Assembly: GCF_009734345.1 (NCBI RefSeq)
Contig: NZ_CP032551.1
Coordinates: 2,370,001-2,402,000, forward strand
Length of the DNA stretch: 32,000 bases
Source of the DNA: Pseudidiomarina andamanensis
Lineage (GTDB): Bacteria; Pseudomonadota; Gammaproteobacteria; Enterobacterales; Alteromonadaceae
Direction: 5' to 3'
Every line of letters begins with the position of its first letter. Position 1 is the first letter of the stretch. The translations under genes and the position numbers were made by a program. The notes beneath the pieces were generated by a model. It worked only from the letters and a program-made list of their open reading frames with translations. It had not been told where the DNA came from and ran no database searches. Below, piece by piece: positions 4,782-32,000 of the stretch.

Positions 4782-5060
4782 ATGAAAACTTTATCAGCAT
4801 TATTTGCTGCTGCAGCATTGGCTTTAGCGCCAACTGCAATGGCATCTGGTCAAGCCGGTGGCGCTGAGGCATCTGGTTCAGGTGCAGCATTCTCTACTGG
4901 CGCAATGGTAGCAGCTGGCGTTGCTGCAGTTACAGTTTTAGTTGTTGCAACTGACGACGACGACGACTTCGTATCTCCAAAGCCAGTTGAGCCACCAGTA
5001 GTACCACCAGTAAATCCAGGTACTACTACTTCAACCAGCACTACCACTTCAGGTATGTAA
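4782..5060 (+). CDS. yjbE: YjbE/GfcA-like small secreted/membrane protein (module 1)
   Basis: It starts at ATG 4782 with a GGAAGAGGA RBS; the track's TTG at 4746 is unlikely. The protein has a signal peptide MKTLSALFAAAALALAPTAMA, an Ala/Gly-rich region, a hydrophobic stretch, DDDDD, and a Pro/Thr-rich tail ending TTTSTSTTTSGM. This architecture matches E. coli YjbE/GfcA as I recall them. Confidence 0.7.
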   Translation: MKTLSALFAAAALALAPTAMASGQAGGAEASGSGAAFSTGAMVAAGVAAVTVLVVATDDDDDFVSPKPVEPPVVPPVNPGTTTSTSTTTSGM

Positions 5061-5082
5061 GCTCGTTTGAAGTAAAACAAAA

Positions 5083-5115
5083 GTCGCAAGCGAAAGCTTG
5101 CGGCTTTTTTATTTT
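5083..5115 (+). terminator. Rho-independent terminator after yjbE-like gene 1
   Basis: GTCGCAAGC-GAAA-GCTTGCGGC forms a 9-bp stem with one G-U pair and a GNRA-type loop, followed by TTTTTTATTTT. Confidence 0.75.
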
Positions 5116-5130
5116 GTGAAGGTGATAAAT

Positions 5131-5949
5131 ATGTTAATATCGCCCACACAAATAGAGCAAAAAGCCCCAGCAAACAGAACTCAAAATAACAACATGACAG
5201 CCAAACACTCGCTTTACATTCAAATCATCATTTTGGCTCTCATCAGCACGCTAATCAGTGGCTGCAGCGTGCGCCTTCAAAACTACAAAGAAATTGTCAC
5301 TGAGCTCTTCAACACACCAGAAGATGTAACGCTCAGCCAACAAGAAATTGAAGAATTCCCATACGCCGGTAGCTACATACAAGTTGACGAGCGTCCGCGC
5401 GCATTTATGGCATTGGCTTTCGACGATAATGGCGTACTCAAATGGCGCACCGGTGGCGAGGAAATTATCCATACTAAGCACGGCCGCATAACCGCTACCA
5501 ACAACATGAGCGGCGCCATTGCGCACACAAGCAACCTAAAAAACGACCCGTTAGCGTGTTTCCGCGAAGCAATCCGAAGAAACAACCAAGACCTCACCAA
5601 CTGCCCAACAACATGGCAACGTGACATTTGGGTAACTACTGCCACTCCGAACAAAATTGAAGATCAGGCGTATACGTACACCTCAGAATTCAGAGTAGGC
5701 GCCACCGAGCAAGTGAACTTGGCCAATGGCACCTCGCACCAAGTCATTAAAATCGAAGAACGCATAGGCACAAGCGACAACAACGTAGCAACCAACACCT
5801 TTTACATCAGCACCGACAATGCCCGTATCGTAAAATCGCACCAGCTGATTGCGCCTCCAAGTAGCTCACAAAGTAGCTCCGAAAGTACCTTCGCAACCAT
5901 TGAAGAAGTGAAGCCGTACACCTTAGAAGAAGTGAAGAATAACGGATGA
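5131..5949 (+). CDS. yjbF: YjbF/GfcB-family outer-membrane lipoprotein (module 1)
   Basis: It has a lipobox LISGC preceded by MTAKHSLYIQIIILALIST. ATG 5131 has a GAAGGTGA RBS, and ATG 5194 is an alternative start. The track's TTG at 5098 lies inside the terminator hairpin and is rejected. It is paralogous to the N-terminal half of ORF 29582-30970 (shared EI..FPYA..Y.. and LAFDDNG/LGYDDNH blocks). Confidence 0.72.
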   Translation: MLISPTQIEQKAPANRTQNNNMTAKHSLYIQIIILALISTLISGCSVRLQNYKEIVTELFNTPEDVTLSQQEIEEFPYAGSYIQVDERPRAFMALAFDDNGVLKWRTGGEEIIHTKHGRITATNNMSGAIAHTSNLKNDPLACFREAIRRNNQDLTNCPTTWQRDIWVTTATPNKIEDQAYTYTSEFRVGATEQVNLANGTSHQVIKIEERIGTSDNNVATNTFYISTDNARIVKSHQLIAPPSSSQSSSESTFATIEEVKPYTLEEVKNNG

Positions 5950-8900
5950 TTTCGCGCACACTTAAACTCACGGCTATCGCACTCGCTGTAGCAACGGCTG
6001 CAACAAGCGCGTACGCTCAAAGCCAAAAACCAACCGTCGCCGTCAAAATCCAAGGCCCAGAAAAGACACCAGAGTTGCAATTCGCAGGCAGCCCACGCCT
6101 AAGTCAGGTGTACGCGAACGCGCAAATTAAACCAGAAGAAATCTTCTGGCCTGGCGTACGCCTTGTAAGCGCAGAAAAACACAACGAGATCATCCAAAAA
6201 CAAAAGCAGCTCACCCAGCAGCTCTACAAACTCGAGCGCTACTTTCAGCAGGAAGAACAACGCAACTACGCGCAGCTCGCCAATCGCATTGCTGGGCAAG
6301 TCGCCAGTTGGCCAGTTGTAGGCGCAGAGCCAATCGGACGTGGTCATGTCGAACAGGGGCCGAAAGGTACCACCCTCGGTGTCGATATCAATAAAAAGAG
6401 TAGCCTCACTAGCTATTACGACGAAGCGCGCCTCAACATCAATGCAAACCCGCAGCTTCCGCAGGGTTCCAAAGAACAGCCGACGCGGTATCAGTTGCTC
6501 ATGCCAACAATCGAAAAACACCAAACCACGCACCTGCAAGTAATTGGCGCCGTGTGGATGCCGTTCACCATGAGCTATCATCCGCATTTCACTGCGCGCG
6601 AAACGGCGCACAAAGAGAACTTCAAACAGCGCCTCGAAGCAATCACACATAAAGACAAAGTGCTACAAGTTAGCGCGCAAGGTGACGTGCAAGAAATAAA
6701 CATTGATCCGTACAACGCCCACAGCCAAAAATTCTCGGCGGGGGCAAAAATCATCGCGTTGTTCAACACCAGCAAACTGCCCAAAGAATTCAAAGACATT
6801 AACAAGCAAATGGCAGAGCTGGCGAAATACTGGAACCCGTTGCAGCCAACGTTAAAAGAAACCAGCCATTTCACCACGCTGGGCAAATACACGCAAAGCG
6901 AGAAAGACCAACAGCCGCCATTATTACTCTTTGGTGAAGCCGACAAAAAACTGCGTCCAACTACCAGCGATTTCGGCAGCATCGGCCTGTTACAAATGCC
7001 AAGCGGCCGCCACGCCGAGCAGGGCGAGTTCAGCTTTACCTATTATGATCAAGACGAGTACAGACGTTGGGCATTAAACTTGCAGCTGTTTCCCTGGTTA
7101 GAAGCAACCATTCGCTACAACGACATTCGTACGCGTCGATACAGCCAAGATGTTAACTTCTCAGGCGACCAGACCTATAAAGACCGTGGCGTCGATTTAA
7201 AATTTCGCCTTACCGAAGAAAGTCGTTGGATACCAGAGACGAGTGTGGGTATTAGAGATGCTGCAGGCACCGGCTTATTCGCTGGCGAGTACGTTGCCGC
7301 GAGCAAACGTTTTGGCAACTTTGATTTTACTGCAGGTTTAGGCTGGGGCTATCTCGGCAAAAACAATAACGTGAACAACCCATTCTGCGAACTAGCCGAC
7401 GAGTTCTGCAGTAGAACGGACGGTTTCAGTGGCCGTGGCGGTAGCTTCGAAGTCGATAAGTGGTTCAAAGGCAACACTGCCTGGTTCGCTGGCTTGGAAT
7501 ACCAAACGCCGTGGGATCCGCTCAGTATCAAAGTTGAATACGACAGCAATAACTACAAAAATGAGCCATCAACCGTCACCATGCCACAAGATTCCCGCTG
7601 GAATTATGGTTTAGAGTATGACCTTGGCAATAACATGAGCATTAAAGCCAGTTACGAGCGTGGCAATACCCTCATGTTTGGCTTCACCATTCGTACTAAC
7701 TTGGCAAACGCATCACAACCGAAAATTGATAGTCATCCGAAGCGCCCACCAGCGCCGCCGCGCCTAAAAACTGTCGAGCAACTCAAGCAAGCAGAAGAAT
7801 TAAACAAACTGCGCATGGCACTCAACACCGAGGCGAGCACTTGGGTGGATGAAATAGCGCTCAGTGAAGATAACCAAACATTGACCTTATACGGTAGCCA
7901 ATATCGCTATCGTGACAGCGAGCTTGGCCTCGAAAAAATGGGACGCGTGTTGGCAACCGAAGTACCTGACACCATTAAAACCTATCAGTTTGTGAATCAG
8001 TCGGGCAGCATCAACTTGGCGCAAAACAACATTGACGCCGAATTATTTAAAGATGCGATAGCGCGTAGAACCATCAACGCAACCACGCAACAGGCCTATA
8101 GCCGCAGTGAAGTAACGGATAAGCCAGGCGAAACACTTTTCAAAGATGAGTTTGAATTTGCCCAGTTGCCAACGGTGAGTGTGAAGCCGTTTTTAGATCA
8201 AAGTTTCGGGGGGCCAGAAAGCTTCTATATGTATCAAGTAGGCCTTGATGCACGTTTGATCTATTCACTCAGCCCGAATACATATATTTATGGCACCGCT
8301 AGTGCGCGTATTGCCGATAACTACGATAAATTCAATTATACAACTGGCGAAGAAACCGGTGCATTGCCGCGAGTACGCACCTATGTTCGCGAATACGTTA
8401 CCAGTAGCGATATATTCTTGCGTGATCTGCAACTGGTGCATCGTCTTCAGTTAGCTGACAGCTGGTTCGCCGGCGCCTACATCGGTTATCAAGAGCAAAT
8501 GTTTGGCGGATTCGGCGGTGAAGTACTTTATCGCGAACTTGATAGTAACTGGGCGGTCGGTTTAGACGTAAACTACGCAAAACAGCGCGATTGGGAAGAC
8601 CACTTCGGCTTCCGTGATTACGACGTGATTACCGGCCACTTAACGGGTTATTGGCGCCCGAGCTTCCTCCCCAATACATTAATTAGCGTCGCGGCAGGCC
8701 AGTTCTTAGCGGGTGATCGCGGAGTGCAGGTATCCGTTGACCACAAATTCGACAGCGGCATTATCGTTGGCGCTTATGCAGCCAAAACCAACGTATCAGC
8801 GCGAGAATATGGTGAGGGTAGCTTTACCAAAGGCTTCTATATCAGCATTCCGTTTGACATACTGCAGTTACGTTATAGCGCTGGCCGTGGTGCCATCAGC

Positions 8901-8996
8901 TGGACGCCACTAACGCGAGACGGCGGACAAATGCTCGGTGGTGGCGTTGGCTTATTCGGCGCAACCGATAAGCGCAGTCCTTACTACGTTGACTAA
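5946..8996 (+). CDS. yjbH: Fusion protein: YjbG/GfcC-like periplasmic domain (about aa 1-330) plus YjbH/GfcD-like outer-membrane beta-barrel (from about aa 339, nt about 6960)
   Basis: 1016 aa with signal peptide MISRTLKLTAIALAVATAATSAYA. The N-terminal part fits the GfcC pattern (V.V......RL......W, NP.LP.G). The C-terminal part starts DFGSIGLLQMPSGR..QLFPWLEATIRYNDIR, the characteristic YjbH N-terminus. It is clearly paralogous to the ORF starting at 30971. The start overlaps the yjbF-like stop (ATGA). Confidence 0.75.
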   Translation: MISRTLKLTAIALAVATAATSAYAQSQKPTVAVKIQGPEKTPELQFAGSPRLSQVYANAQIKPEEIFWPGVRLVSAEKHNEIIQKQKQLTQQLYKLERYFQQEEQRNYAQLANRIAGQVASWPVVGAEPIGRGHVEQGPKGTTLGVDINKKSSLTSYYDEARLNINANPQLPQGSKEQPTRYQLLMPTIEKHQTTHLQVIGAVWMPFTMSYHPHFTARETAHKENFKQRLEAITHKDKVLQVSAQGDVQEINIDPYNAHSQKFSAGAKIIALFNTSKLPKEFKDINKQMAELAKYWNPLQPTLKETSHFTTLGKYTQSEKDQQPPLLLFGEADKKLRPTTSDFGSIGLLQMPSGRHAEQGEFSFTYYDQDEYRRWALNLQLFPWLEATIRYNDIRTRRYSQDVNFSGDQTYKDRGVDLKFRLTEESRWIPETSVGIRDAAGTGLFAGEYVAASKRFGNFDFTAGLGWGYLGKNNNVNNPFCELADEFCSRTDGFSGRGGSFEVDKWFKGNTAWFAGLEYQTPWDPLSIKVEYDSNNYKNEPSTVTMPQDSRWNYGLEYDLGNNMSIKASYERGNTLMFGFTIRTNLANASQPKIDSHPKRPPAPPRLKTVEQLKQAEELNKLRMALNTEASTWVDEIALSEDNQTLTLYGSQYRYRDSELGLEKMGRVLATEVPDTIKTYQFVNQSGSINLAQNNIDAELFKDAIARRTINATTQQAYSRSEVTDKPGETLFKDEFEFAQLPTVSVKPFLDQSFGGPESFYMYQVGLDARLIYSLSPNTYIYGTASARIADNYDKFNYTTGEETGALPRVRTYVREYVTSSDIFLRDLQLVHRLQLADSWFAGAYIGYQEQMFGGFGGEVLYRELDSNWAVGLDVNYAKQRDWEDHFGFRDYDVITGHLTGYWRPSFLPNTLISVAAGQFLAGDRGVQVSVDHKFDSGIIVGAYAAKTNVSAREYGEGSFTKGFYISIPFDILQLRYSAGRGAISWTPLTRDGGQMLGGGVGLFGATDKRSPYYVD

Positions 8997-9022: not shown

Positions 9023-10189
9023 ATGGCAAAAGTAGTTGTCGCCGGCACCGGATACGTCGGCCTGTCAAATGCCGTGTTACTTGCACAGCACAACCAAGTG
9101 CATGCGCTCGATATTGTGCAAGAAAAAGTTGACCTGATTAACGCAGGTAAAAGCCCTATTGAAGATAAAGAAATCAGCGCGTTTTTAGCCGAAAAAGAAC
9201 TGAATTTATCCGCGACAACTGACCCAAGTGTTTACGCGGAAGCCGAGTGGGTAATTATAGCAACGCCAACCGATTACGATGCACAAACCAATTACTTCAA
9301 CACGCGCTCGGTTGAAGCCGTGATTGAAACCGTACTAAAGCATAATCCGCAAGCAGTGATGGTGATTAAGTCGACCATCCCGGTGGGTTATACCAACGAG
9401 TTAAAAGCGAAATTTAAAACCGACAATATTATCTTTTCGCCCGAGTTTTTGCGTGAAGGTAAAGCATTACACGATAACCTGTACCCATCACGCATTATTG
9501 TGGGTGAGCGCTCACCACGCGCTGAAGTATTTGCAACGATGCTGAAGCAAGGCGCGATAAAACAAGACGTACCGGTATTATTCACCGATGCCACTGAAGC
9601 TGAAGCGATTAAATTATTCGCAAATACCTTCTTAGCGATGCGCGTGGCATACTTTAATGAGTTAGACACCTATTCAGCAGTGCATGGCTTAGATAGCCGC
9701 CAAGTGATTGAAGGCGTATGCTTAGATCCGCGAATTGGCAACCATTACAATAACCCGAGTTTCGGCTATGGTGGTTACTGTTTACCGAAAGACACCAAGC
9801 AGTTGTTGGCAAACTACGATGAAGTGCCACAGAATATGATTCGCGCGGTGGTGGATGCTAATCGCACGCGCAAAGATTTTATTGCCGAAGATATTCTGCG
9901 CCGTAACCCGAAAGTTGTTGGCGTTTACCGCTTAGTGATGAAGCAGGGTTCAGATAACTTCCGTGCTTCGGCAGTGCAGGGCGTCATGAAACGCTTGAAG
10001 GCCAAAGGTATTGAAGTAGTAGTATATGAACCCGTACTAAAAGAAGAATCATTTTTTAACTCACGTGTGATTCGTGACTTAGAAGAGTTTAAGCGAGTGA
10101 GCGATGTGATAGTAAGCAATCGCCACCAAGACGTGCTTAGCGATGTCGCGGATAAAGTGTACACGCGTGATTTGTTTGGTAGTGACTAA
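9023..10189 (+). CDS. ugd: UDP-glucose 6-dehydrogenase
   Basis: 388 aa with N-terminus [18 protein letters not shown] (Rossmann GxGxxG) and the catalytic-Cys motif [12 protein letters not shown]. Length is typical of Ugd. Confidence 0.92.
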
Positions 10190-10203
10190 GCCATTATAAA
10201 AAT

Positions 10204-10229
10204 CAGCAAGCTTAAGATTAAGCTTGCTG
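10204..10229. terminator. Bidirectional hairpin between convergent ugd and the GT4 gene
   Basis: CAGCAAGCTTAA-GA-TTAAGCTTGCTG is a perfect 12-bp stem. On the minus strand it is followed by TTTTTAT. Its right arm overlaps the last codons and stop of the GT4 gene. Confidence 0.65.
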
Positions 10230-11318
10230 TTCCACCTGTTCTATAATCAGTATTAGTTGATCTATTTTAATTTTAACGTCAAAATTTTCTTGAGCGTAAC
10301 GTATAGAACTTTCTCGCAAACTAGCGCGAAGCTCCGGACTATCAATTAATTTTTTAATATTTCTAACGATACTGTCGATGTCCTTGAAGCTTGAAACGTA
10401 ACCGTTTACACCATTTTCAACAGCATCTTGGCAACCGGGAACATTATAGGTCAATGTCGGTATTCCCATGGCGCTTGCTTCCATAACACATACAGGGAAA
10501 CCCTCGCGTACCGAAGGTAATAACAACACATCAGAATCGGTATATAATTCTTCGATATTTTGAACGAATCCCAGAAATTCGATGTGCTCCCCGAACTTTT
10601 GCTTGATACATTCAATATCGTTGTGGGTAAGAGAGGAAGGATTATTGGGATAATAATCTCCAATAACCTTTAATTTCACATTCAGTCCCAGCGAGAGGCA
10701 CTTTTCTAGTACCGCGAAAGAATCTTTGATTCCTTTATCTTCAATTAGACGACCGACATAAACAAGAGTTAAACCGTTATGAGGTACAATCTGTTGACTT
10801 TGGAACCGCTCCAAGCTTATTCCAATACCATTTGTGACTATATCAGATGGTTGACCAATTTGATTTCGCTCGTCCGAATTACAGAAAACTCTCGCTTCAG
10901 TAAAACGTTTTATTAGCGTTCGGAGAATTGTCTTAGCAAATGTCCGTTTTGTAAAAAAACTACCTAATCCTTCAACCGATAACAATAGACGCTTATTAAA
11001 TAGTGCCAATGTTGGAAGCGAGAAAATAAATGTAGTTAGAAAGAAACAAAGATAGGTTGTGTTTCTGCGTCTCAATCTGAATTTTGTAATTGTCCAATTA
11101 AAGTCGAGAACGCTCCACAGCAGACCAATCCCCTTATTGAATTTTCTAACTGCAACGATCTTGCATCCCATATTTTGCAAGGCTTGCTGTGACTTAATAC
11201 AGTCTGCTGGAGCTATAACATATACGCGCCTGCCATCGGCAATAAATCGAGCAATGTATTCCTTTCGGAAGATATAGGTTGTTCTAATTGAGTTTTGAAC
11301 TATACAAATATCGTTCAT
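10218..11318 (-). CDS. Glycosyltransferase, GT4 (GT-B fold) family
   Basis: 366 aa with a C-terminal E-x7-E-type motif (REGFPVCVMEASAMGIPT). Polysaccharide-locus context supports the call. Confidence 0.8.
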   Translation of the reverse strand: MNDICIVQNSIRTTYIFRKEYIARFIADGRRVYVIAPADCIKSQQALQNMGCKIVAVRKFNKGIGLLWSVLDFNWTITKFRLRRRNTTYLCFFLTTFIFSLPTLALFNKRLLLSVEGLGSFFTKRTFAKTILRTLIKRFTEARVFCNSDERNQIGQPSDIVTNGIGISLERFQSQQIVPHNGLTLVYVGRLIEDKGIKDSFAVLEKCLSLGLNVKLKVIGDYYPNNPSSLTHNDIECIKQKFGEHIEFLGFVQNIEELYTDSDVLLLPSVREGFPVCVMEASAMGIPTLTYNVPGCQDAVENGVNGYVSSFKDIDSIVRNIKKLIDSPELRASLRESSIRYAQENFDVKIKIDQLILIIEQVEQQA

Positions 11319-12196
11319 GAAATTACTCGTTTAACGGTGTAGTAAAGTGTTTTCGAGAGAAAGCTAAAGGAGACAAGACCTCTGTTGCAGGCCGCTTTAT
11401 ACCATTCGCTAAAAACGCCTGCTTGAATGCTTGGACCGAGAAGTTGAACAATCATGAAGTTCTCACGTATCTTCCTATTTTCCGTTAATAAATACCTGTC
11501 GAAAAAATGAAGCGACTTCTCAAGTGACCAGTTATGTTTAATTTTGGCGATCTTGCCCGATTTGACATAATCAACTAGCACATCATCGACAAACCTCAAT
11601 TTGAGTCCGGATGCTTCGGCGTTAATTATGAATTGATAATCTTGATGTCGTGGCAAAGAGCTATCGAAACCGCCAATACGAAGAAAATCTTCTTGTCGCA
11701 TCATTAGTGTTGAGGTTTGGAACGCTAAGTTGTGAAATAATGAGCCAAATAAGTTCTCACAAAACGTTTTTGTAACATCAAATTCACTTGCAACTCTAAG
11801 AGCGGTTACTCGATCCGATGCAACAGCACGTACTCGACAGCTAACGATGCTGGATAATTCAAGAGCATTTAACTGCTTTTCCAGTTTTTGAGGGTACCAA
11901 TAATCATCAGCATCTAAAAAACACAAGACATCTCCGGAAGCATTTCGAGCACCGATATTACGACTATCGGCAGCATTAGTATTCTCATGCTTTTCGATAA
12001 GCTTAATTTCCGATAGGTTAAAACTTTGGAGAATCTGATGTAGATCAACAACATCTTTAGAACCATCGTCAACAATAATAATTTCGAATGGTTTAATTGT
12101 TTGTGACATTAAGCATTCAACTGCATGTTTGATGGTTTTTGATGCATTATATGTGGGTATTACGACGCTAACTTTCATCTTTCTTTTCGTTACCAT
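11315..12196 (-). CDS. Glycosyltransferase family 2
   Basis: It contains VSVVIPTYNASKTI...EIIIVDDGSKD and a DADD motif. The internal ATG at 12178 (MKVSVVIPTYN) is a plausible alternative start. Confidence 0.8.
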   Translation of the reverse strand: MVTKRKMKVSVVIPTYNASKTIKHAVECLMSQTIKPFEIIIVDDGSKDVVDLHQILQSFNLSEIKLIEKHENTNAADSRNIGARNASGDVLCFLDADDYWYPQKLEKQLNALELSSIVSCRVRAVASDRVTALRVASEFDVTKTFCENLFGSLFHNLAFQTSTLMMRQEDFLRIGGFDSSLPRHQDYQFIINAEASGLKLRFVDDVLVDYVKSGKIAKIKHNWSLEKSLHFFDRYLLTENRKIRENFMIVQLLGPSIQAGVFSEWYKAACNRGLVSFSFLSKTLYYTVKRVIS

Positions 12197-13403: not shown

Positions 13404-13420
13404 AATTGTTAATTACTCAA

Positions 13421-14359: not shown

Positions 14360-14718
14360 AATGTCTCGAAGGTGTCGTTTAGAACTTGGGATATGTCAAA
14401 ATTCATATCCATCCATCAAATTGAGGTTAGCAAATGCGCAACATTTATTTGATTAATTTAGCTTCGATGTCATCTATCGTGTGCTAAGGAGCATTGATTC
14501 TACCAGTGCTAAACTGCACGTCAATGCAAAGGTAGACTATAGTTAATTTAGTATAAAACAGTCGGTGAAGTGTAAAAGTGGGCGATATTGTTAATTTGTT
14601 GCTTCAACACACTGTGGCTTTCAGATAGAATTTATCAAGCTTAACAATTCGATTACTTAAGCTCACCACTCATATTGTGAAGAATCTCAGATTGAATTCG
14701 GGAGTTAGACTGTAAGGT

Positions 14719-20986: not shown

Positions 20987-21029
20987 TTAACCTTGGATAT
21001 TTATAGTTAACGACGATGGGAATAGTTTT

Positions 21030-21887: not shown

Positions 21888-21968
21888 TTAATATATTGTT
21901 GTATTTGCGGCTGGCAACAGATTCTCTAATCATTACCAAAATAATTAGATAGCGAGTAATTTTTACAA

Positions 21969-23905: not shown

Positions 23906-23914
23906 GGAAATAAA

Positions 23915-25030
23915 ATGATACCTGTTACAAAACCTTTCCTGCCGAACCGCGAAAAGCTTGATAAATATATAGATGGCATCTACGAACGAGAGTGGTTGAC
24001 CAATAACGGCCCGTTAGTACAAGAGTTGACAAAACGTTTAGAAGAGTATTTGGGTGTCGAAAACTTGCTGTTAGTTTCAAATGGCACACTGGCACTTCAG
24101 ATTGCATATCGCGCATTAGGAATTCATGAGAGTAAAAGCGCTAAGGTTGCTGAAGCAATTACTACACCTTTTACGTTTGTAGCTACAGCCAGCTCGTTAA
24201 AGTGGGAGGGTATAGAGCCAATATTTGCAGATATTGACCCGGAAACTTGGTGCCTAAATCCTCAAGGTATCGAACAGAAAATAACTGAGCAAACGGTTGC
24301 TATAGTTCCAGTGCACGTTTATGGAAATGCTTGTGACGTAGAGGCTATAGAAGCTCTTGCGAGAAGACAGAATTTAAAGGTTATTTATGATGCTGCTCAC
24401 GCTTTTGGTGTGAAATACAAAGGGGAAAGCATACTTCGTTGGGGTGACGCAGCAACGTTGAGCTTTCACGCAACAAAGGTGTTCCATAGCATTGAAGGAG
24501 GAGCTATTGTCTTCAAGCATCGAGAGGATATGGAGCGTGCAAAGCGGTTGATGAGTTTCGGAATGACGGGGCCTGAGACTATTTCGGATGTTGGTATAAA
24601 CGCTAAAATGAATGAGTTTCAAGCAGCAATGGGTCTTTGTGTTCTTGATGAAATAGACGAAAATATCAAAGCGCGAGAAAGGCATTGGTATCGATATCAA
24701 AATGAGCTTACTTCGAGTGCGATACTGCAACGGCTAAATAACGTAAGTGACTATAATTTTGCATATTTTCCAGTGCTGTTTAGAAGCAAGGAAGAGCTAC
24801 TACATGTGAGCAGCGGGTTGGCAGATAAGGGAATTATCGCTAGACGGTATTTTTATCCATCTTTGAACGAGTTGGAGATATTCGGGGCTGATTTAACTTT
24901 GCCAATATCTTCCGGTATTGCAGAAAGAATTTTGTGTCTACCAATTTATGCTGGACTAGATGCTAATGACGTGAACTCGATAATAGATATTGTTAAACGT
25001 TTAACTTCAACTTATAAGGAAATGCAGTGA
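23915..25030 (+). CDS. DegT/DnrJ/EryC1-family PLP sugar aminotransferase, likely dTDP-4-keto-6-deoxy-D-glucose 4-aminotransferase (VioA/WecE-type; C4 stereochemistry unresolved)
   Basis: 371 aa with N-terminus IPVTKPFLP...WLTNNGP and the PLP-lysine motif SFHATKVFHSIEGG. It lies directly downstream of rfbB-rfbA. No rmlC/rmlD or 3,4-isomerase is present. Confidence 0.85.
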   Translation: MIPVTKPFLPNREKLDKYIDGIYEREWLTNNGPLVQELTKRLEEYLGVENLLLVSNGTLALQIAYRALGIHESKSAKVAEAITTPFTFVATASSLKWEGIEPIFADIDPETWCLNPQGIEQKITEQTVAIVPVHVYGNACDVEAIEALARRQNLKVIYDAAHAFGVKYKGESILRWGDAATLSFHATKVFHSIEGGAIVFKHREDMERAKRLMSFGMTGPETISDVGINAKMNEFQAAMGLCVLDEIDENIKARERHWYRYQNELTSSAILQRLNNVSDYNFAYFPVLFRSKEELLHVSSGLADKGIIARRYFYPSLNELEIFGADLTLPISSGIAERILCLPIYAGLDANDVNSIIDIVKRLTSTYKEMQ

Positions 25031-25905
25031 GTAAAAATAAATCATCATTAACAAATTTCGATGAATGCTCACCGTTTTTCATTTTAGGAAACCCGCGCTC
25101 AGGCACTTCAATGTTTCGAATGATGTTGAACAGCCACCCTGAGATGGTCGTGCCGCCAGAATGCGGTTTTTTGGAGTGGTTACATTCTGATTTTTCTGAT
25201 TTCTCACCAGAGACTAAAGGTTACGAACAGTTTGCTAAAAGCGTATGTGCTTCTAAAAAATTTGAAACTTGGGGGGTTGAGTACTCGCAATTGTTAGAGA
25301 CTTTGGTCGAGTATTCTCCTCAGAATTATCGCGAGTTGTGTCTGTGCGTTTATCTGTCGTATGCGAAAAAAATTGGGAAAAGAGCTATTCGTGTTGGTGA
25401 TAAAAATAATTATTACATGAAGCGATTAAATGTTTTGGACGATAGATTCCCTCTGTCGAAAAAGGTTTTCATCTTACGAGATGGACGAGACGTGGCATGC
25501 TCCTATTTAAAACTAAATGAAGTTAAAACGACTTCCGAATATTATCCAAATCTGTCATCAAATATTCGAGAAATTGCTGAAGAATGGCGGGTAAATGCCG
25601 AATCAGCAGCCGCTTACGAAAAATCAGGTGCCCTTGTTGTCAAGTATGAAGATTTATTGTCGCAAGCGGATGTGGTTCTCAAAGAAGTGTGTTCTTACCT
25701 ATCAATTTATTATTCGGAAAGCATGTTGGATTTTGCGCAAAACAATGATGAACCAGTCAGCTTTTTGCAGTGGAAAGGAAAGACCACTTTGGACATTCAA
25801 TCTGATAATAAAGGGAATTATAAGACGATATTATCGGATACCGAGTGTGCTGAGTTTGAGGATGTTGCTGGTCAAATGCTCAAATTTCATGGATATATGT
25901 CGTGA
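25027..25905 (+). CDS. Sulfotransferase-domain protein (PAPS-dependent)
   Basis: It has a 5'-PSB-like loop GNPRSGTSMF near the N-terminus and a 3'-PB-like motif ILRDGRDVACSY. The GTG start overlaps the aminotransferase stop (GTGA). Confidence 0.75.
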   Translation: MSKNKSSLTNFDECSPFFILGNPRSGTSMFRMMLNSHPEMVVPPECGFLEWLHSDFSDFSPETKGYEQFAKSVCASKKFETWGVEYSQLLETLVEYSPQNYRELCLCVYLSYAKKIGKRAIRVGDKNNYYMKRLNVLDDRFPLSKKVFILRDGRDVACSYLKLNEVKTTSEYYPNLSSNIREIAEEWRVNAESAAAYEKSGALVVKYEDLLSQADVVLKEVCSYLSIYYSESMLDFAQNNDEPVSFLQWKGKTTLDIQSDNKGNYKTILSDTECAEFEDVAGQMLKFHGYMS

Positions 25906-25921
25906 AAAATCAAAGTAGCCA

Positions 25922-27361
25922 ATGAACCTTTCTCAAAAAACCACAAGTGGAATTATTTGGAACTTTTTCGAGCAATTTGCTCGAAGAGGTTTTGGAGTTC
26001 TAGTTACGCTCGTACTTGCTTATTTTCTAACGCCGGAAGATTATGGTCTAGTAGCAATGATGGCGGTGTTTCTGGCATTAGGTTCTTCGTTAATGCAATC
26101 GGGCTTCAGCCAGGCATTAATAAGAATGCCTGATGTCACTCAGACAGATTACAACACAGCATTTTTTGCCAACATTGTGCTCGGTATTGTTGCTTATGCA
26201 TTATTATTTTTAATCGCACCTTTAATTTCCGTTTTTTATGAAGAGCCACAATTAACTTTACTCATTCGAGTAGCGTCCTTATCGATTGTGATTAGCTCAT
26301 TTCAAGTGGTTCAACAAGCTAGTTTAAGTCGTGAATTGAACTTTAAAGCTCAAGTGAAGGCTGTATTGCCTGCCAGTATCATTTCTGGTGTTATTGCTGT
26401 TTGGTTTGCCTACTTAGATTTTGGAGTCTGGGCTCTTGTAGGGCAAATGATATTGGCTTCGCTTTTACAGACATTGTTTCTATGGTTGGTTCAAGGCTGG
26501 CGCCCTACGAAAGATTTTTCGCTACCCGCGTTAAAAGATATGTATAGTTTTGGATACAAGCTTTTTCTTTCCGGAGTTCTGGATACTATTTTTCAAAATT
26601 TATATGTAGTCGTCATTGCTAAAATATTCTCCGCACCCATTGCAGGCCTTTATTTTTTTGCTAATCAAATAAAGCAAATTGTTATTGCGCAACTCGTTTC
26701 ATCAGTACAAGCGGTAACTTATCCAGCGTTGTCCAAACTCAATACGGATGATGAAATCTTACGTCGTGGTTATAGTCGAGTCATCCGCGCCATAACGTTT
26801 ATCGTTTTCCCAGCTTTAGCTTTTCTGGCTGTACTAGCCGAACCTATATTTTCTATCTTCTTACCTGACAAGTGGTTTGCAGCTGCATCTTATCTACAAT
26901 TAATGTGTTTGGCGTCATTTTTGATACCAGTTCATTCGGTAAACCTGAATATATTGAAAGTCAAAGGTAGGTCAGATTTATTCTTGCTTTTAGAAGTACT
27001 AAAGAAAACCGTCGCAATAGTAATCATGGCGATCAGTCTTCAAGGGGGAATCTATGGGTTATTGGTGGGTCAGATTATTACTTCGGTGATTGTGTTCATT
27101 CCGAATAGTTATTTTTCAAAAAAGTTAATTGGCTATGGTGTATATAGCCAGTTGGGGGACTTTGGCTTTTATGGCTTTTCAGCTGCTGCTGTATCAGTGA
27201 GTACCTTGTTACTTAGTAATTATTATAATGTTGGAGATTTCACCCTGATTTTAATAGGTCTTCCAACCATGATAGTTCTGTATTTTGGGGCTTGTTTCCT
27301 ATTTAAGAAAAGTGATTTGACGATGATGGCTCAACTGTTGAAACCGTCGAAACGAAATTAA
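25922..27361 (+). CDS. wzx: Polysaccharide flippase (Wzx; MOP/PST family)
   Basis: 479 aa with about 12-14 TM segments and N-terminus GIIWNFFEQFARRGFGVLVTLVLAYFLTPEDYGL, typical of PST-family flippases. Confidence 0.8.
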   Translation: MNLSQKTTSGIIWNFFEQFARRGFGVLVTLVLAYFLTPEDYGLVAMMAVFLALGSSLMQSGFSQALIRMPDVTQTDYNTAFFANIVLGIVAYALLFLIAPLISVFYEEPQLTLLIRVASLSIVISSFQVVQQASLSRELNFKAQVKAVLPASIISGVIAVWFAYLDFGVWALVGQMILASLLQTLFLWLVQGWRPTKDFSLPALKDMYSFGYKLFLSGVLDTIFQNLYVVVIAKIFSAPIAGLYFFANQIKQIVIAQLVSSVQAVTYPALSKLNTDDEILRRGYSRVIRAITFIVFPALAFLAVLAEPIFSIFLPDKWFAAASYLQLMCLASFLIPVHSVNLNILKVKGRSDLFLLLEVLKKTVAIVIMAISLQGGIYGLLVGQIITSVIVFIPNSYFSKKLIGYGVYSQLGDFGFYGFSAAAVSVSTLLLSNYYNVGDFTLILIGLPTMIVLYFGACFLFKKSDLTMMAQLLKPSKRN

Positions 27362-27438
27362 GCCGTGGCTTTCGTAAAATTTTCCATGAGGCCTAATTTG
27401 ACTGATAGTCACACAGATCATAATAGAATGAGAGTTGA

Positions 27439-28461
27439 ATGAGTAAAAGCGAATCTAAAGATGTCGATATTAAGTGCGTCGATACCCCGAAGCTAATTAC
27501 GGATCAGTATTGGATTACTAATGACGCTCCGCCACTTGTAACGATTTCATGTACGACATTTAATCAAAAGCATTTTATTGGGAAATGCATCGAGAGCTTT
27601 TTGAGTCAGAAAACAACGTTTAAGATTGAGATTCTCATCTATGATGACGCCTCTGATGATGGCACATCTGAAATCGTACGCCAGTATCAAGAACGTTTTC
27701 CTACTTTGATTAAGACGTTCATTCAAGAAGAAAACCAATTCTCACAGGGGCGTAACGTAAATATAGCCAATTTTAGTTCAGCCCAAGGCAAATTTATTGC
27801 GCTATGCCACGGCGATGATTACTGGTGCTCAGCTGATAAGTTGCAAAGTCAGGTTGAAGCGATGAACAAATTCGATGTTGACATATCTGGTCATGCTGCC
27901 ATCAAAGTAGACGTGAATGATCGTATTCTAGATGGCTTGACTGGTTATCAGGTAAACAAAGTCAAGTACTTTTCTTTTAGGAGTTTAATCGAGAACAATG
28001 GGAACATGTTACCATTTGGCTCAATTATGATTACTGAAAAAGCTAAATCTCGAATGCTTGAATATATGCCACCAGTCACTTTTCATACCGGTATTCAAAT
28101 GCTTGGTGCTTTAGATAAAGGGTTAATCGTACTTCCTGATGTTTTGAGCGCGTACAGAATTGACGTACCAGGCTCTACTACAGAGATTCTACTAAAAGAT
28201 ATCAAACGCGTGGAAAATACAACATTAAGGCGTGTTACAAGTTTTAAGTTCCTCCGAAAACTTTCCAATAGAAGTTATATGAGCGCATTTAATAAGTTGC
28301 TAGCCAAACAGGTTTTACAAGGGAAGCAATTAAGGATTAGTTCTCGGCTTATTGTTTTGCGGGCAGTTCTAGAAAATGAGTCGATCGCAAGTAGGGTAGA
28401 AATTATTATTTTGTTAGTGGCGCACTCTTTTAAAAAAATCGCTAGGTTAATTGTGCGATGA
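27439..28461 (+). CDS. Glycosyltransferase family 2
   Basis: It contains LVTISCTTFNQKHFIGKCIESFLSQ...EILIYDDASDDGT and HGDDYW (DxD-like). Confidence 0.75.
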   Translation: MSKSESKDVDIKCVDTPKLITDQYWITNDAPPLVTISCTTFNQKHFIGKCIESFLSQKTTFKIEILIYDDASDDGTSEIVRQYQERFPTLIKTFIQEENQFSQGRNVNIANFSSAQGKFIALCHGDDYWCSADKLQSQVEAMNKFDVDISGHAAIKVDVNDRILDGLTGYQVNKVKYFSFRSLIENNGNMLPFGSIMITEKAKSRMLEYMPPVTFHTGIQMLGALDKGLIVLPDVLSAYRIDVPGSTTEILLKDIKRVENTTLRRVTSFKFLRKLSNRSYMSAFNKLLAKQVLQGKQLRISSRLIVLRAVLENESIASRVEIIILLVAHSFKKIARLIVR

Positions 28462-28958
28462 AATGGTACGTCATCCGCACCAAGCCGCGGCAAGAACAAC
28501 GCGCATTGGTGAACCTTGAGAATCAAGATATAGAGGCCTATTTGCCGCAAATTACGGTTGGCAAAGTACGCCGGGGTAAGCGTGTGCCGGTAACCGAAGC
28601 GTTGTTTCCTGGCTATATCTTTGCGCAGTTGGATGACTTTGCTGGTCGCTTCCATAAAATCCGTAGCACTTTTGGCGTACAGAAATTGTTATTGTTTGGT
28701 GATAAGCCTGCGACAGTTCCTGACGCACTAATTGACGAATTAAAAACGCTTGAACATGATCCAATCACGCAAACAACAGCAGAACACCAGGCATCACCTC
28801 AAGTTGGCGATCAAGTAGAAATAGCCAACGGTCCGTTTGCTGGGTTTATCGCGAAGATCATTGATTTAGATGGAGATTCTCGTTGTATTGTTCTGCTCGA
28901 TTGGTTACAAAAAGACGTACAAGCCTCGTTTTCGTATACTGAATTGAAAAAAATTTAA
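28458..28958 (+). CDS. rfaH: Transcription antiterminator RfaH (NusG paralogue)
   Basis: 166 aa starting MKWYVIRTKPRQEQRA..., with PLFPGYIF and a C-terminal KOW-like GDQVEIANGPFAGF. It aligns along its length with my recollection of E. coli RfaH. An exact ops site lies 221 nt downstream. Confidence 0.85.
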   Translation: MKWYVIRTKPRQEQRALVNLENQDIEAYLPQITVGKVRRGKRVPVTEALFPGYIFAQLDDFAGRFHKIRSTFGVQKLLLFGDKPATVPDALIDELKTLEHDPITQTTAEHQASPQVGDQVEIANGPFAGFIAKIIDLDGDSRCIVLLDWLQKDVQASFSYTELKKI

Positions 28959-29161
28959 CCTCACTTTAAGTAATAAATGTTTATATTTTACACAAAGAAT
29001 ACTCCCCGCAACCCCGCATCATATAAGCCATTCACATAAATTTAATTTTATTTTGCAGTTGTAAAAATTTAATTAAAATGCTCCAATATCGATAATATAA
29101 ATACAACAATTGAAAGCGCTAAATAGCAGAATAAAACGAGAGTTTGCGCAAGGAGCAAAGT

Positions 29162-29190
29162 GGGAGCTGTAACCTAAGGGCGGTAGCGTG
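29162..29190 (+). promoter_or_regulatory. JUMPStart element containing an ops site (RfaH recruitment site)
   Basis: Sequence is GGGAGCTGTAACCTAAGGGCGGTAGCGTG. The last 12 nt (29179-29190) equal the E. coli ops GGCGGTAGCGTG (consensus GGCGGTAGnnTG). The preceding GGGAGCTGTAA resembles the JUMPStart GGTAGCTGTAAAG block. It lies 110 nt upstream of the yjbE-like ATG. Confidence 0.78.
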
Positions 29191-29299: not shown

Positions 29300-29578
29300 A
29301 TGACAAAATTGACTTCGTCTTTCGTTGCATTAACTGCAGCCGTTGCTTTCGCAGCAACACCTATGGCATTAGCGAACCCTGAGCCAGCACCGAAACCGGT
29401 TCAGGCTTCAGCTGCAGCACCACAAGCAGGTGCCGCTGCAGGTGGCGCAGCCGCTGGTGGCGCAATTGGTGGTATGACCATCGCTGCCGTTGCTGCAGTC
29501 GCAGTGACCGTTGGTGTTGTTGCTACCGTCGCAACCAATGACGACGACGAAACCCCAACCACGGTGACGAACAACTAA
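29300..29578 (+). CDS. yjbE: YjbE/GfcA-like small secreted/membrane protein (module 2)
   Basis: It has a signal peptide MTKLTSSFVALTAAVAFAATPMALA, an Ala/Gly-rich stretch, a hydrophobic stretch IAAVAAVAVTVGVVATVAT, then NDDDE and a Thr-rich tail. The architecture is the same as ORF 4782-5060. Confidence 0.7.
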   Translation: MTKLTSSFVALTAAVAFAATPMALANPEPAPKPVQASAAAPQAGAAAGGAAAGGAIGGMTIAAVAAVAVTVGVVATVATNDDDETPTTVTNN

Positions 29579-29581
29579 ACT

Positions 29582-30970
29582 GTGATAAAGCAATTCAAAA
29601 CGGCCACTTCTTTAAGTGGCCTTTTTTATGGTTGTTTGGCGGTAGCGGCTATAACCACTCTTTCAGGTTGTAGCTTAATGCGTTCAACCCAGGTGCTGGA
29701 TGAATCTGCCAGTGCTGCCTCGCAAAGTTTGTACTATGCAATTGCGGGTCAACCTGACGTTGAACTGACCGAACAGGAAATTGCCGATCTGCCATACGCG
29801 GCCAACTATGTGGAATTTGATGATCAAGCGCGTGCGCTGATTGTACTTGGTTATGACGATAATCATTCGCTGCAATGGGTATCGGCAAACAATGAAGTGC
29901 TTACCACCAGTTTCGCTGGGCGAGTCATTCGCACCGATAGCTTACTGAGTAATCTTGAACACGTTGCTGATTCTGAAACAGACCCACTGCACTGCATTCA
30001 GTTTGCACCATCGCTTGCGCAAGCACAGCGGTGTAACAACACGTGGCGGCGTACAATTACTACCGAGCACAATGGGCAATTCAGTCAGTGGTTGGTAGAT
30101 ACCATATTTCAAGTTGAAGAAACGCAAGCGAATCGTATCGTTCGTGAGTATGGCGCCGCAGAGCTCTTGTCGGCGAGCGCTGATACGAGAGAGCCAACGA
30201 CGATTTCAATTTCCAATACCTTTGAATATGCAAAGTATAACGACACCTTTCGGCCGGTAGAGTTAACCCAATGGATTAGTCCTGAGTTGGGTATGTTGCA
30301 GCAGCAAGAGGTCAAGGTATATGGTGAATACCTGTCAAATGACGGTAAAAACCTGTCAAAAGACAGGTTTTTGCAAGATCAGCTATTCAGCCAGCCACCG
30401 CAACTCACAAATCAGCAGATGTGGGTGCGCATTGAACGTAGCAATGGCACCAAAGTGGATATCGTCACCGATGATGAGCCGCGCATGAGTCAGTTACTTG
30501 ATGCCGTGCCAACAGCGCAATCGGTGATGTGGCCGCAAACAAAGATCAGCAGCCCGGCACTGAAACAACAATTTGAAGCGCGTAAGCAAGGTATGTATGT
30601 GCGCTTAAAAATGCTCGCGCAAACATACCGATATGATGGCGAAGCTGAGCTTGCGTCAAAATCTGGCGCACTAGCTGATGACTTTTTGACCTGGCCTTTA
30701 AAGCCAAGTTACGTCACTGATTTTTCACGCGCGAAGGCGCGACAGGATTTGTCGCAGAACCCGCTTCTAAACCATGCGCAGGTTGGCGAGCATCGCTTAA
30801 ACAATGAGCCGCATTACACCATTACTCTAAGCGCACACTATAACCAAAAGCAGTTGCCGGCCTTACCAATTGCTGATTATGAATTGCCGAAAGGCTTTCG
30901 TGATGTGAATCAGCAATTACGATTGTTTATGCAATACTGGCACTTTACTGAAGCAGCAGGGCAGCACTAG
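29582..30970 (+). CDS. yjbF: Fusion protein: YjbF/GfcB-like lipoprotein (N-terminal, about aa 1-265) plus YjbG/GfcC-like domain (C-terminal, about aa 270-462)
   Basis: It has a lipobox LSGC. The N-terminal half is paralogous to ORF 5131-5949 (EIADLPYAANYVEFDD..LGYDDNH). The C-terminal half resembles the N-terminal YjbG-like part of ORF 5946-8996 (V.I......RMSQLL......WP, NPLL). The GTG start is uncertain because a terminator hairpin lies in codons 7-16. Confidence 0.68.
   Translation: MIKQFKTATSLSGLFYGCLAVAAITTLSGCSLMRSTQVLDESASAASQSLYYAIAGQPDVELTEQEIADLPYAANYVEFDDQARALIVLGYDDNHSLQWVSANNEVLTTSFAGRVIRTDSLLSNLEHVADSETDPLHCIQFAPSLAQAQRCNNTWRRTITTEHNGQFSQWLVDTIFQVEETQANRIVREYGAAELLSASADTREPTTISISNTFEYAKYNDTFRPVELTQWISPELGMLQQQEVKVYGEYLSNDGKNLSKDRFLQDQLFSQPPQLTNQQMWVRIERSNGTKVDIVTDDEPRMSQLLDAVPTAQSVMWPQTKISSPALKQQFEARKQGMYVRLKMLAQTYRYDGEAELASKSGALADDFLTWPLKPSYVTDFSRAKARQDLSQNPLLNHAQVGEHRLNNEPHYTITLSAHYNQKQLPALPIADYELPKGFRDVNQQLRLFMQYWHFTEAAGQH
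29602..29627 (+). terminator. Rho-independent terminator after yjbE-like gene 2
   Basis: GGCCACTT-CTTT-AAGTGGCC is a perfect 8-bp stem followed by TTTTTT. It starts 24 nt after the yjbE-like stop. Confidence 0.78.
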
Positions 30971-32000
30971 ATGGCATTAACCAGCTCAGCTTTGGTGATA
31001 TTAGCAAGTAGTGCTTGGCAACCCGTTAGCTTTCAGCCTGAAACAGTTAACCAGAGTGACTTCGGTGGCGTGGGGTTAATGCAGACACCAACCGCTCGTA
31101 TGCATGATGAAGGTGAATTTTCGCTAAATTACGTAGATAACGAACAATTTCGTCGCATGTCGGTAAGCTTGCAGGTGTTTCCATGGTTGGAAGCGACGGC
31201 GCGATATACAGATGAGCGTGAACAGATATGGGGTGGTGGTGTCGAATTTAGCAATAATCAAACTTATAAAGATAAAGGGTTTGATGCAAAATTTAGGTTG
31301 TTACAAGAGAGTGAGTACTTACCGCAGGTTTCGCTAGGTATGCGTGACATGGGCGGTACCGGTTTATATGCTGCGGAATACGTCGTTGCAAGTAAACGCC
31401 TTGGTGATTTTGATATGAGCCTAGGAATGGGATGGGGATATTTAGGCCGGCGCGACAATATTTCCAATCCATTTTGTGAAATAGTTGATAAGTTTTGCGA
31501 GCGTCCTGTCCATGTAGACGCTGGCGGCGGTGACTTCGAAATCAAAGAAATGTTTCGCGGTCCGGCAGCTATGTTTGGTGGCCTACAATATCAAACACCG
31601 TGGCCACAACTTCAATTGATGGCAGAATACGACTCGAATGATTACGGTCAAGATCGCGTCGAAACGCCCATTCAAGTCGACAGCCCATGGAACTTCGGTG
31701 CGAACTACGCGGTATCTGAATACCTGAACTTAAAACTCAGTTATCAACGTGGTAACACGCTTATGTTTGGGGCAACCTTCCATTTCAATTTGGCGACGAT
31801 TAGCCAAGCCAAGTACGAGCCAGCGCCACAAAAGGTCGGTTACAGCGAAACGCGCGAACTCAGCCAAGTTGATTACGAACGATTAAGCCAAGATTTACTG
31901 CGCGAAGCTGGCTATAAAGTGCATGCGGTTGAGGCAAATAAAACCCAACAACGCGTAACGCTCTACACCACACAAACGCGGTACCGCAATAGCGAGCAGG
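30971..32000 (+). CDS. yjbH: YjbH/GfcD-like outer-membrane protein (module 2), 3'-truncated by the window edge
   Basis: This ORF is not in the supplied track because it has no stop in the window. I translated it by hand from ATG 30971 and found it open to nt 32000. It reads MALTSSALVILASSAW...SDFGGVGLMQTPTARMHDEGEFSLNY...LQVFPWLEATARYTD...GWGYLG..NPFCE...YQRGNTLMFG. It is collinear with aa 339 onward of ORF 5946-8996. Confidence 0.82.
   Translation, partial: MALTSSALVILASSAWQPVSFQPETVNQSDFGGVGLMQTPTARMHDEGEFSLNYVDNEQFRRMSVSLQVFPWLEATARYTDEREQIWGGGVEFSNNQTYKDKGFDAKFRLLQESEYLPQVSLGMRDMGGTGLYAAEYVVASKRLGDFDMSLGMGWGYLGRRDNISNPFCEIVDKFCERPVHVDAGGGDFEIKEMFRGPAAMFGGLQYQTPWPQLQLMAEYDSNDYGQDRVETPIQVDSPWNFGANYAVSEYLNLKLSYQRGNTLMFGATFHFNLATISQAKYEPAPQKVGYSETRELSQVDYERLSQDLLREAGYKVHAVEANKTQQRVTLYTTQTRYRNSEQ

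Follow-up and report, generated by a model that had tools for sequence, protein, structure and literature searches.

In the present study, we analysed a stretch of 32,000 nucleotides (nt) from the chromosome of Pseudidiomarina andamanensis (assembly GCF_009734345.1, contig NZ_CP032551.1, positions 2,370,001 to 2,402,000 of the forward strand), called the window throughout, which carries two copies of the four-gene module known as yjbEFGH or gfcABCD. The products of the four genes are called here E (YjbE/GfcA), F (YjbF/GfcB), G (YjbG/GfcC) and H (YjbH/GfcD). In the first copy (module 1), G and H form a single protein of 1016 amino acids (aa), and in the second copy (module 2), F and G form a single lipoprotein of 462 aa. 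Both fusions are genuine and conserved in many relatives. Taking all observations together, we consider it very probable that the window represents two adjacent polysaccharide loci of the Pseudidiomarina chromosome, A and B, each headed by its own YjbEFGH/GfcABCD-type module, with module 1 belonging to an accessory locus and module 2 to a core operon. A preliminary description of this DNA had proposed two diverged paralogous modules of this type, and their open reading frames (ORFs), the signal peptide and the lipobox were located where it had placed them. It had also regarded the two modules as brackets around one locus, and this view did not hold.

The G-H fusion of module 1

The G-H fusion protein (GH) is encoded on the plus strand at 5946..8996 and was characterized by Pfam, hhalign, AlphaFold and Foldseek, together with its conservation in relatives. 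After a signal peptide (aa 1-24), the protein contains a GfcC/YjbG-like part (G1, aa ~26-298, encoded at 6021..6839 on the plus strand), a linker (aa 299-338) and a YjbH/GfcD two-barrel part (H1, aa 339-1016, encoded at 6960..8993 on the plus strand), which starts with SDFGSIGLLQMPSGR and lacks a separate signal peptide. The Pfam family YjbH (PF06082) matched aa 340-1008 with 773 bits and was covered from model position 2 to 657 of 658, thus over its full length. In the G1 part, GfcC_N (PF20616) matched aa 31-126 with 29.2 bits, which is over the cut-off of 22.1, and GfcC_C (PF06251) matched aa 228-292 with 16.9 bits, which is under the cut-off of 20. Furthermore, a G1 profile built from 12 G-H fusion proteins was aligned by hhalign with E. 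coli GfcC and YjbG at a probability of 93% and an E-value of 3e-7 (aa 11-292 against 9-241 of 248).

The structural comparison was made with the AlphaFold model of GH, which has a mean predicted local distance difference test (pLDDT) score of 75. When this model was compared with the PDB by Foldseek, the best four matches were chains of 3P42 (GfcC), with an E-value of 4.5e-10, a probability of 1.0 and a template modelling (TM) score of 0.71 on the target over 273 columns. The terminal helix of G1 is LPKEFKDINKQMAELAKYW, and the model carries a low-confidence insertion at aa 130-166. According to the profiles and the model, G1 is predicted to be a complete GfcC with both beta-grasp domains and the C-terminal amphipathic helix. 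In the H1 part, DSSP assigned 12 strands to aa 361-585, a mixed alpha/beta domain to aa 610-733 and 13 strands to aa 743-986, and this pattern agrees with the GfcD architecture described in PMC8592465 and PMC11494523. Between the two parts, aa 299-332 had pLDDT values below 50. This is consistent in the model with a flexible linker, and bears out the linker of about 40 aa that had been suggested from the sequence. The distal part of the linker holds a motif, PP.LWLGE...RP..SDFG, that is kept among the G-H fusions. We also considered a relic signal peptide within the linker, and no convincing similarity to the signal peptide of the free H of Idiomarina xiamenensis was found.

The ATG of GH overlaps the stop codon of F1 by 4 nt. 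F1 is a free YjbF/GfcB-type lipoprotein of 251 aa (5194..5949, plus strand) with the lipobox LISGC; its signal peptide, read from the translation, ends ...LISTLISGC, and Pfam YjbF (PF11102) matched it with 104 bits (8e-30; cut-off 25.9). The ORF as called extends from 5098 to 5949, but the true start is most likely the ATG at 5194, because P. marina has a stop codon 5' of the equivalent ATG. E1, a YjbE/GfcA-like small secreted protein of 92 aa, lies ahead of F1 at 4782..5060 on the plus strand. A terminator-like hairpin with a T-run was detected by scan between E1 and F1 (5079..5108, plus strand; 13 pairs) and is kept in P. marina with one loop change. Another small hairpin, CCCAC-ATAGAC-GTGGG, was seen in the E1 leader at about 4726-4741 on the plus strand. 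The E1 leader of P. marina (locus L012, ~8776-8796) has a hairpin with one compensatory change (CTCAC...GTGAG); the stem is of 5 base pairs (bp) and may be due to chance.

The F-G fusion of module 2

The F-G fusion protein (FG) of 462 aa is encoded at 29582..30970 on the plus strand with a GTG start, and was examined with Pfam, the PDB, Foldseek and hhalign. It consists of a YjbF/GfcB part (aa ~36-250) and, after a spacer of low complexity, the N-terminal half of a GfcC (aa ~276-415) and a terminal helix (aa 434-454). Its signal peptide ends ...ITTLSGC, and the lipobox (LSGC) is conserved in relatives; F1 and FG are both predicted lipoproteins with a lipobox cysteine. The F part was readily recognized. 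Pfam YjbF matched aa 49-240 with 88 bits (9e-25; cut-off 25.9), a sequence search of the PDB found 2IN5 (GfcB/YmcC) at 4.6e-10, and the fold of the FG model matched the same entry (Foldseek E-value 6e-11, TM score 0.71). Since the PDB sequence search gave 2IN5 for FG and 3P42 for neither fusion, profile and fold comparisons were used for the G parts.

A GfcC-like domain had been expected in both fusion proteins. GH exceeds the GfcC_N cut-off, whereas FG stays below it and can be assigned only indirectly. In FG, GfcC_N matched aa 288-361 with 20.2 bits (7.5e-4; cut-off 22.1) and GfcC_C had no match. The direct hhalign comparison of its G part (G2) with E. coli GfcC/YjbG was not significant (E-value 0.27), and 3P42 was only the eleventh match of the FG model in Foldseek (E-value 0.14). 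In addition, the structure-model alignments were shallow (18 and 29 sequences), as were those of the G parts. The direct match of G2 to GfcC is weak, and its identity depends on transitive profile matches that pass through G1 and the longer F-G fusions. The low Pfam, hhalign and Foldseek values of the direct comparison would favour another explanation, namely that the C-terminal half of FG is an unrelated extension of YjbF in Idiomarinaceae and that module 2 has lost its G.

We judge such a loss highly unlikely in view of the strong, collinear profile matches to G1. G2 was aligned with G1 by hhalign at a probability of 97% and an E-value of 3e-11 (G1 aa 29-173 against FG aa 278-398), and when the longer F-G fusions served as master the values were 98% and 3e-14 over 235 columns; G1 itself has a confirmed GfcC fold. 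The longer F-G fusions of other Pseudidiomarina (534-567 aa) carry right before the terminal helix a block, "VGLT..YVYVIDAFGVITKVPMQ...AIAEQPGAVVLYSI" (alignment A1), which matches the C-terminal beta-grasp of GfcC (E-value 3e-4) and the G of I. xiamenensis; matches were also obtained with our own hidden Markov model (HMM). The precomputed Pfam annotation of one F-G cluster, P0133, lists GfcC_N, marked as weak. Moreover, no separate G gene was present in any F-G operon examined. The terminal helix, LPxGFRDxNxQL..F.Q.W, is the most conserved element of alignment A1, and its LPxGFRDxNxQL motif is found again in G1 and in the G of I. xiamenensis, and in a looser form in E. coli GfcC/YjbG.

In the FG of the window and its closest relatives, the block of the longer fusions (~45-75 aa) is missing, and "HYTITLS" leads to "IADYELPKGFRDVNQQL" within 14 residues. 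From these alignments, G2 appears to be an N-terminal beta-grasp followed by a helical hairpin and the terminal helix, from which the second beta-grasp has been deleted. As GfcC/YjbG has two beta-grasps, G2 is better described as a truncated derivative than as a full member of the family.

The stop codon of FG (TAG) abuts the ATG of H2 in the same frame (30968-30973), likewise in P. marina and in one metagenomic relative (L017); the FG/H junctions of the other relatives are out-of-frame overlaps. H2 is a free YjbH/GfcD homologue (30971..32000, plus strand) that starts at ATG 30971 and is cut by the window end after 343 aa. Pfam YjbH matched it with 378 bits (1.7e-112), covering model positions 2-311 before the end of the window. 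In the in-frame subgroup, the signal peptide of H2 (MALTSSALVILASSAWQ) is without Lys or Arg. Since FG and H2 share a frame, a natural F-G-H triple fusion was searched for, but neither the top 120 homologues of H nor five related junctions showed one.

E2, the small secreted YjbE/GfcA-like protein of module 2 (92 aa; 29300..29578, plus strand), precedes FG, and an E protein precedes every F-G fusion examined. E1 and E2 share one design, in which a signal peptide is combined with a hydrophobic stretch rich in Gly and Ala, a DDDDD cluster and a tail rich in Thr and Ser. By eye, this design and the first position in the module resemble E. coli GfcA/YjbE and the E proteins of Idiomarina. Neither protein had a Pfam or NCBIfam match at an E-value of 0.1 or lower, which tells against the assignment, and because no Pfam match was obtained the identification of E1 is based on position and composition. 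NCBIfam gave no match for any of the six module proteins. A terminator-like hairpin followed by TTTTTT lies just 3' of E2, within the signal-peptide codons of FG (29602..29621, plus strand). It is identical in P. marina, and the peptide encoded by this region (TATSLSGLFYG) is conserved in relatives. The hairpins that follow the two E genes may attenuate transcription, so that E exceeds F, G and H.

Conservation and distribution of the fusions

Among the top 120 homologues of H, the G-H fusion was found in 12 clusters (P0001-P0012), with lengths of 1015-1036 aa and identities of 44-88%. The next-best matches after these were free H proteins of ~700 aa from Idiomarina and other genera. The F-G fusion was found in 19 clusters (P0121-P0139). 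The nearest named relatives are P. marina (87% for GH, 76% for FG) and P. maritima (84% for FG). When 1.84 billion protein representatives were searched with an HMM, 499 matches were obtained. Among the best 150 of these, about 18 were of 479-611 aa, about half of which (~9) span both halves in one stretch; the remainder of the 150 were free F (~210-250 aa) or free G (~250-290 aa). A second word-index search with the FG alignment gave no further proteins. The scan of species-representative genomes yielded nine F-G loci; eight of them belong to named Pseudidiomarina species and the ninth to an unclassified metagenome-assembled genome (MAG), and in each FG is followed by a free H; cluster look-ups added Idiomarina tyrosinivorans as an F-G carrier. 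Overall, the F-G fusion occurs in all Pseudidiomarina core operons examined and in I. tyrosinivorans, and the G-H fusion in at least four named species, the group of P. marina, P. gelatinasegens, P. salinarum and P. taiwanensis.

The modules of three relatives were compared. In I. xiamenensis all genes are separate, in the order E, E, F (255 aa), G (292 aa) and H (713 aa); its G holds both GfcC Pfam domains, and G and H overlap by 4 nt. I. tyrosinivorans has E, FG (510 aa) and H (707 aa), and P. taiwanensis has F (247 aa) and GH (1031 aa). A long exporter comes after each of the three modules. Both kinds of fusion appear to have arisen within one bacterial family from genes overlapping by a few bases. 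With ATGA overlaps of 4 nt between the ancestral genes, a small change at a junction could yield either fusion.

It might be argued that one or both fusions are a sequencing or assembly artefact or a decaying pseudogene, particularly as gene calling in these proteins is uncertain: the clusters P0122, P0124 and P0126 are annotated from an internal Met (MRSTQVL...), by which the signal peptide and lipobox are lost. However, sequencing error is excluded because both fusions are intact in many independent assemblies, with ORFs preserved down to 44% identity for GH and 27-31% for FG and with invariant residues on both sides of the junctions. In P0121, P0127-P0130, P0132 and P0133, the N-terminus of FG with its lipobox is kept in frame. 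We therefore regard an artefact as extremely improbable. The internal-Met starts, and the naming of F-G proteins in databases only as "YjbF family lipoprotein", are likely annotation errors.

Genomic context of the two modules

The window was originally thought to contain a single locus bracketed by the two modules, and on this idea one polysaccharide locus is flanked by redundant or cooperating modules which serve the polymer encoded between them. The arrangement invites it, since both modules are on the same strand with ~20 kb of polysaccharide genes between them, and with a truncated G2 beside a full-length G1 in one genome the sharing of parts between modules is conceivable. Against it speaks the presence of E-FG-H-wza-wzb-wzc in five loci that have neither locus A nor module 1. 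Module 2 also has its own ops leader after rfaH, and wza-wzb-wzc follows module 2 in every relative examined. A bracketed single locus is thus unlikely in our opinion.

The evidence from relatives favours two loci. The layout of P. marina is that of the window, and downstream of its H2 (698 aa) come wza (379 aa, with Wza_C), the gene of a low-molecular-weight phosphatase and that of a 744-aa Wzc. Three metagenomic relatives with a short FG (L017-L019) have the order rfaH, E, FG, H, wza, wzb, wzc, and all nine other Pseudidiomarina loci (L003-L011) have the same core operon, L009 beginning inside FG. Locus A and module 1 are missing in five of these nine (L005, L007, L008, L010 and L011, from P. 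woesei, P. donghaiensis, P. indica twice and one MAG). In these five, gspN (or mscS and the gene of an outer-membrane protein (OMP), where present) is followed directly by ugd and/or pgi, then by rfaH and the core operon. Because the core operon exists in five loci without locus A or module 1, module 2 is independent of the genes upstream of it. By this synteny, module 2 appears to be the head of a genus-wide core operon, ops-E2-FG-H2-wza-wzb-wzc (locus B, from 29.2 kb), and module 1 the head of an accessory locus whose site of insertion in the chromosome is fixed, with the OMP gene on one side and pgi/rfaH on the other. Two points tell against this arrangement as far as the window is concerned. 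The window ends inside H2, so that wza-wzb-wzc would lie 3' of H2 by analogy with relatives (the P. marina proteins are 76-87% identical), and the assignment of each module to a polymer is drawn from synteny and gene neighbourhood, under which both modules could act on the same polymer.

An RfaH-like NusG paralogue (28458..28958, plus strand; Pfam NusG and KOW) lies directly 5' of module 2, and a gene of this kind is at the same position in all relatives examined. Within the 342-nt gap between it and E2, 110 nt before E2, an exact 12-mer ops element, GGCGGTAGCGTG, was found at 29179..29190 on the plus strand; the same 12-mer is present in P. marina (L013, 9503-9514). The leader of module 2 thereby carries on the non-template strand GGCGGTAGnnTG, which we take to be the ops consensus for RfaH. 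In the E1 leader, no ops element was found within one mismatch. These features suggest that the operon of module 2 is under RfaH control and that the regulator is encoded beside the operon it would control.

The divergence of the two modules agrees with their separate placement as paralogues of long standing. H1 and H2 are 47% identical over 321 aa, within the 40-50% that had been estimated by eye, and F1 and F2 are 31% identical over 157 aa; the likeness of G1 and G2 is recognisable only by profile comparison. As H1 and H2 are each 44-47% identical to E. coli GfcD/YjbH, the distance between them equals the distance to the E. coli proteins, and the duplication is therefore not recent, as the preliminary description had held. 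H2 is closest to the H that follows the F-G fusions in other Pseudidiomarina (52-55%), and the nearest to H1 are the other G-H fusions together with the free H proteins of Idiomarina (55-58%; I. xiamenensis and I. tyrosinivorans).

Upstream of module 1 are gspK-L-M-N, mscS and a small beta-barrel OMP gene. In P. marina (L012, 6407-7867), a Y1 transposase, a HigB-like toxin gene and a small ORF were seen between mscS and the OMP gene, which are not in the window, and P. taiwanensis also has a transposase there (L016, 4305-5015). Locus A (~4.7-28.4 kb) starts with E1, F1, GH and ugd. On the minus strand between the modules are two glycosyltransferases, a 411-aa ORF and a kinase-less Wzz (13421-14359); the 411-aa protein is a candidate Wzy and had no Pfam match. 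A WecA-like transferase gene follows this block, and then the gene of a 909-aa exporter (15813-18542, plus strand). Pfam found Poly_export and six SLBB matches in the exporter. GfcC_C reached 17 bits at aa 821-881, under its cut-off of 20, and Wza_C was absent from the Pfam domain matches; by its domains the exporter resembles KpsD/WbfF (OtnA) rather than Wza. The genes 3' of the exporter are pgi (18570-20048, plus strand), a family 2 glycosyltransferase (GT2), a pyruvyl transferase, rmlB, rmlA, an aminotransferase, a sulfotransferase, Wzx, a second GT2 and the RfaH-like NusG paralogue. The position of pgi inside the polysaccharide cluster is common to the window and all Idiomarinaceae relatives examined, and in E. 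coli K-12 yjbEFGH has pgi directly upstream (L002, 1-1408); this proximity may be an old linkage. The guanine plus cytosine (GC) content is 0.32-0.42 at 10000-15000 and 20000-29000 and 0.46-0.51 in the flanks. The low-GC stretches carry strain-specific genes, including the sulfotransferase (25027-25905) and the pyruvyl transferase (21030-21887), and their composition fits strain-specific sugar genes at 10-15 kb and 20-29 kb. These two enzymes hint at a sulfated, pyruvylated polysaccharide.

Proposed function of the fused proteins

In E. coli, the outer-membrane lipoprotein GfcB folds like LolA, and GfcC has two Wza-like beta-grasps and a terminal amphipathic helix. The two form a heterodimer with a dissociation constant (KD) of ~100 nM, which binds GfcD at 28 µM, better than either protein alone (PMC8592465). 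GfcD has been modelled as two barrels joined by a periplasmic domain, and a lateral opening of its second barrel was proposed as the exit for a lipid-anchored polysaccharide (PMC8346858, PMC11494523). Following the E. coli data and the published models, the outer membrane's inner leaflet would anchor F, a LolA-like lipoprotein; G, with its Wza-like beta-grasp domains, would reside in the periplasm; and H would be a two-barrel outer-membrane protein. F would pair with G, the pair would dock on the periplasmic face of H, and the complex may help to export or anchor the polysaccharide made by the neighbouring genes.

The fusions would make two neighbouring contacts of such a complex covalent, in the order F-G-H. 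In module 1, the C-terminal helix of G would be tied by the flexible linker of ~40 aa to the periplasmic N-terminus of H, and in module 2 the C-terminus of F would be tied to the N-terminus of G. From this we infer a physical F-G-H complex in Pseudidiomarina. The topology of the fusions is consistent with it, with F at the periplasmic face, G in the periplasm and the N-terminus of H, ahead of its first strand, facing the periplasm. The terminal helix of G in GH probably stays periplasmic, because the linker back to H follows the helix. The G-H layout would thus argue that this helix, unlike the C-terminal helix of Wza, does not cross the outer membrane.

Within the Idiomarinaceae, unfused genes, F-G fusions, F-G fusions minus the second beta-grasp, and G-H fusions form a natural series with which the GfcBCD/YjbFGH machine could be dissected. 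If the truncated FG is fully functional, the second beta-grasp would be dispensable once G is tethered to F, and the terminal helix (LPxGFRDxNxQL...W) would be what engages H; we put this forward as a rather improbable reading. Still more speculatively, because TAG and ATG are in frame where FG meets H2, readthrough at a low level could produce an F-G-H protein.

The F-G and G-H proteins are ready single-chain constructs for structural work on the complex, and the natural deletion in G2 would mark an expendable part of G. The module is widespread, and YjbH/GfcD has been described as the largest multi-barrel outer-membrane family (PMC8346858). The analysis also gives a correction for annotation, as F-G proteins are named only as YjbF lipoproteins and often given a start that removes the lipobox. 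In addition, the region is clarified as two tandem capsule/exopolysaccharide loci, one core and one accessory.

Comparison with known systems

The use of these fusions as Rosetta-stone evidence for a linked F-G-H complex is sound as an inference, and a complex of this kind has been measured in E. coli, but the argument is not new, because the reasoning from OtnG (2011) and the 2021 binding of GfcB to GfcC and of GfcBC to GfcD precede it. OtnG of Burkholderia thailandensis, of 995 aa, is a GfcC-GfcD fusion that suggested coupled function (PMC8592465); PMC4017328 includes it among predictions drawn from fusions and credits the idea to the paper of 2011 on the GfcC structure. The fusions in the window add little on an interaction already measured in E. 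coli, and the F-G fusion stands as a second, independent genomic witness of that contact. The F-G (GfcB-GfcC) fusion, its restriction to Idiomarinaceae, its truncated form and its co-occurrence with a G-H fusion in one genome were not found in the searchable literature, a search whose scope left out most subscription papers.

OtnG and GH have the same G-H architecture and nearly equal length, and come from different classes of Proteobacteria. Their independent origin is suggested because an unfused relative exists in Idiomarina. The relation to the wbf genes of Vibrio, which had been put forward earlier, is supported by PMC8592465 and PMC7829505. In Vibrio, wbfE-wbfD-wbfC-wbfB (orf1-wbfDCB) occur with wbfF/otnA and wzz/otnB, and locus A has the same combination, in which a yjbEFGH-like module stands with the 909-aa KpsD/WbfF-like exporter, a Wzz-type protein and ugd (PMC7829505, PMC8592465). 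According to these papers the Vibrio wbf genes are separate, and they are likened to locus A here by description.

The closest parallels are with E. coli, where the four genes had been said to be separate; indeed, all eight gfcABCD and yjbEFGH genes of K-12 are unfused. The yjbEFGH operon is, like module 1, a four-gene module without adjacent wza-wzb-wzc, and pgi is nearby in both. Unlike module 1, it is unfused, and it is reported to be Rcs-regulated and to lie outside a Wzx/Wzy gene cluster (PMC8117528), whereas module 1 heads a full biosynthetic locus. In gfcABCDE-etp-etk, the group 4 capsule operon, the genes stand in the same order as in the modules, namely a small Thr-rich protein, a LolA-like lipoprotein, a beta-grasp protein and a two-barrel OMP. 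In the relatives of module 2, wza-wzb-wzc are the equivalents of gfcE-etp-etk, and the short gene overlaps, which PMC8592465 records as 1-4 bp, and the folds (2IN5, 3P42) are common to both systems. In E. coli the gfc genes are separate, whereas in the window the equivalents of GfcB and GfcC are one polypeptide that has apparently lost the second beta-grasp in module 2, and those of GfcC and GfcD are one polypeptide in module 1.

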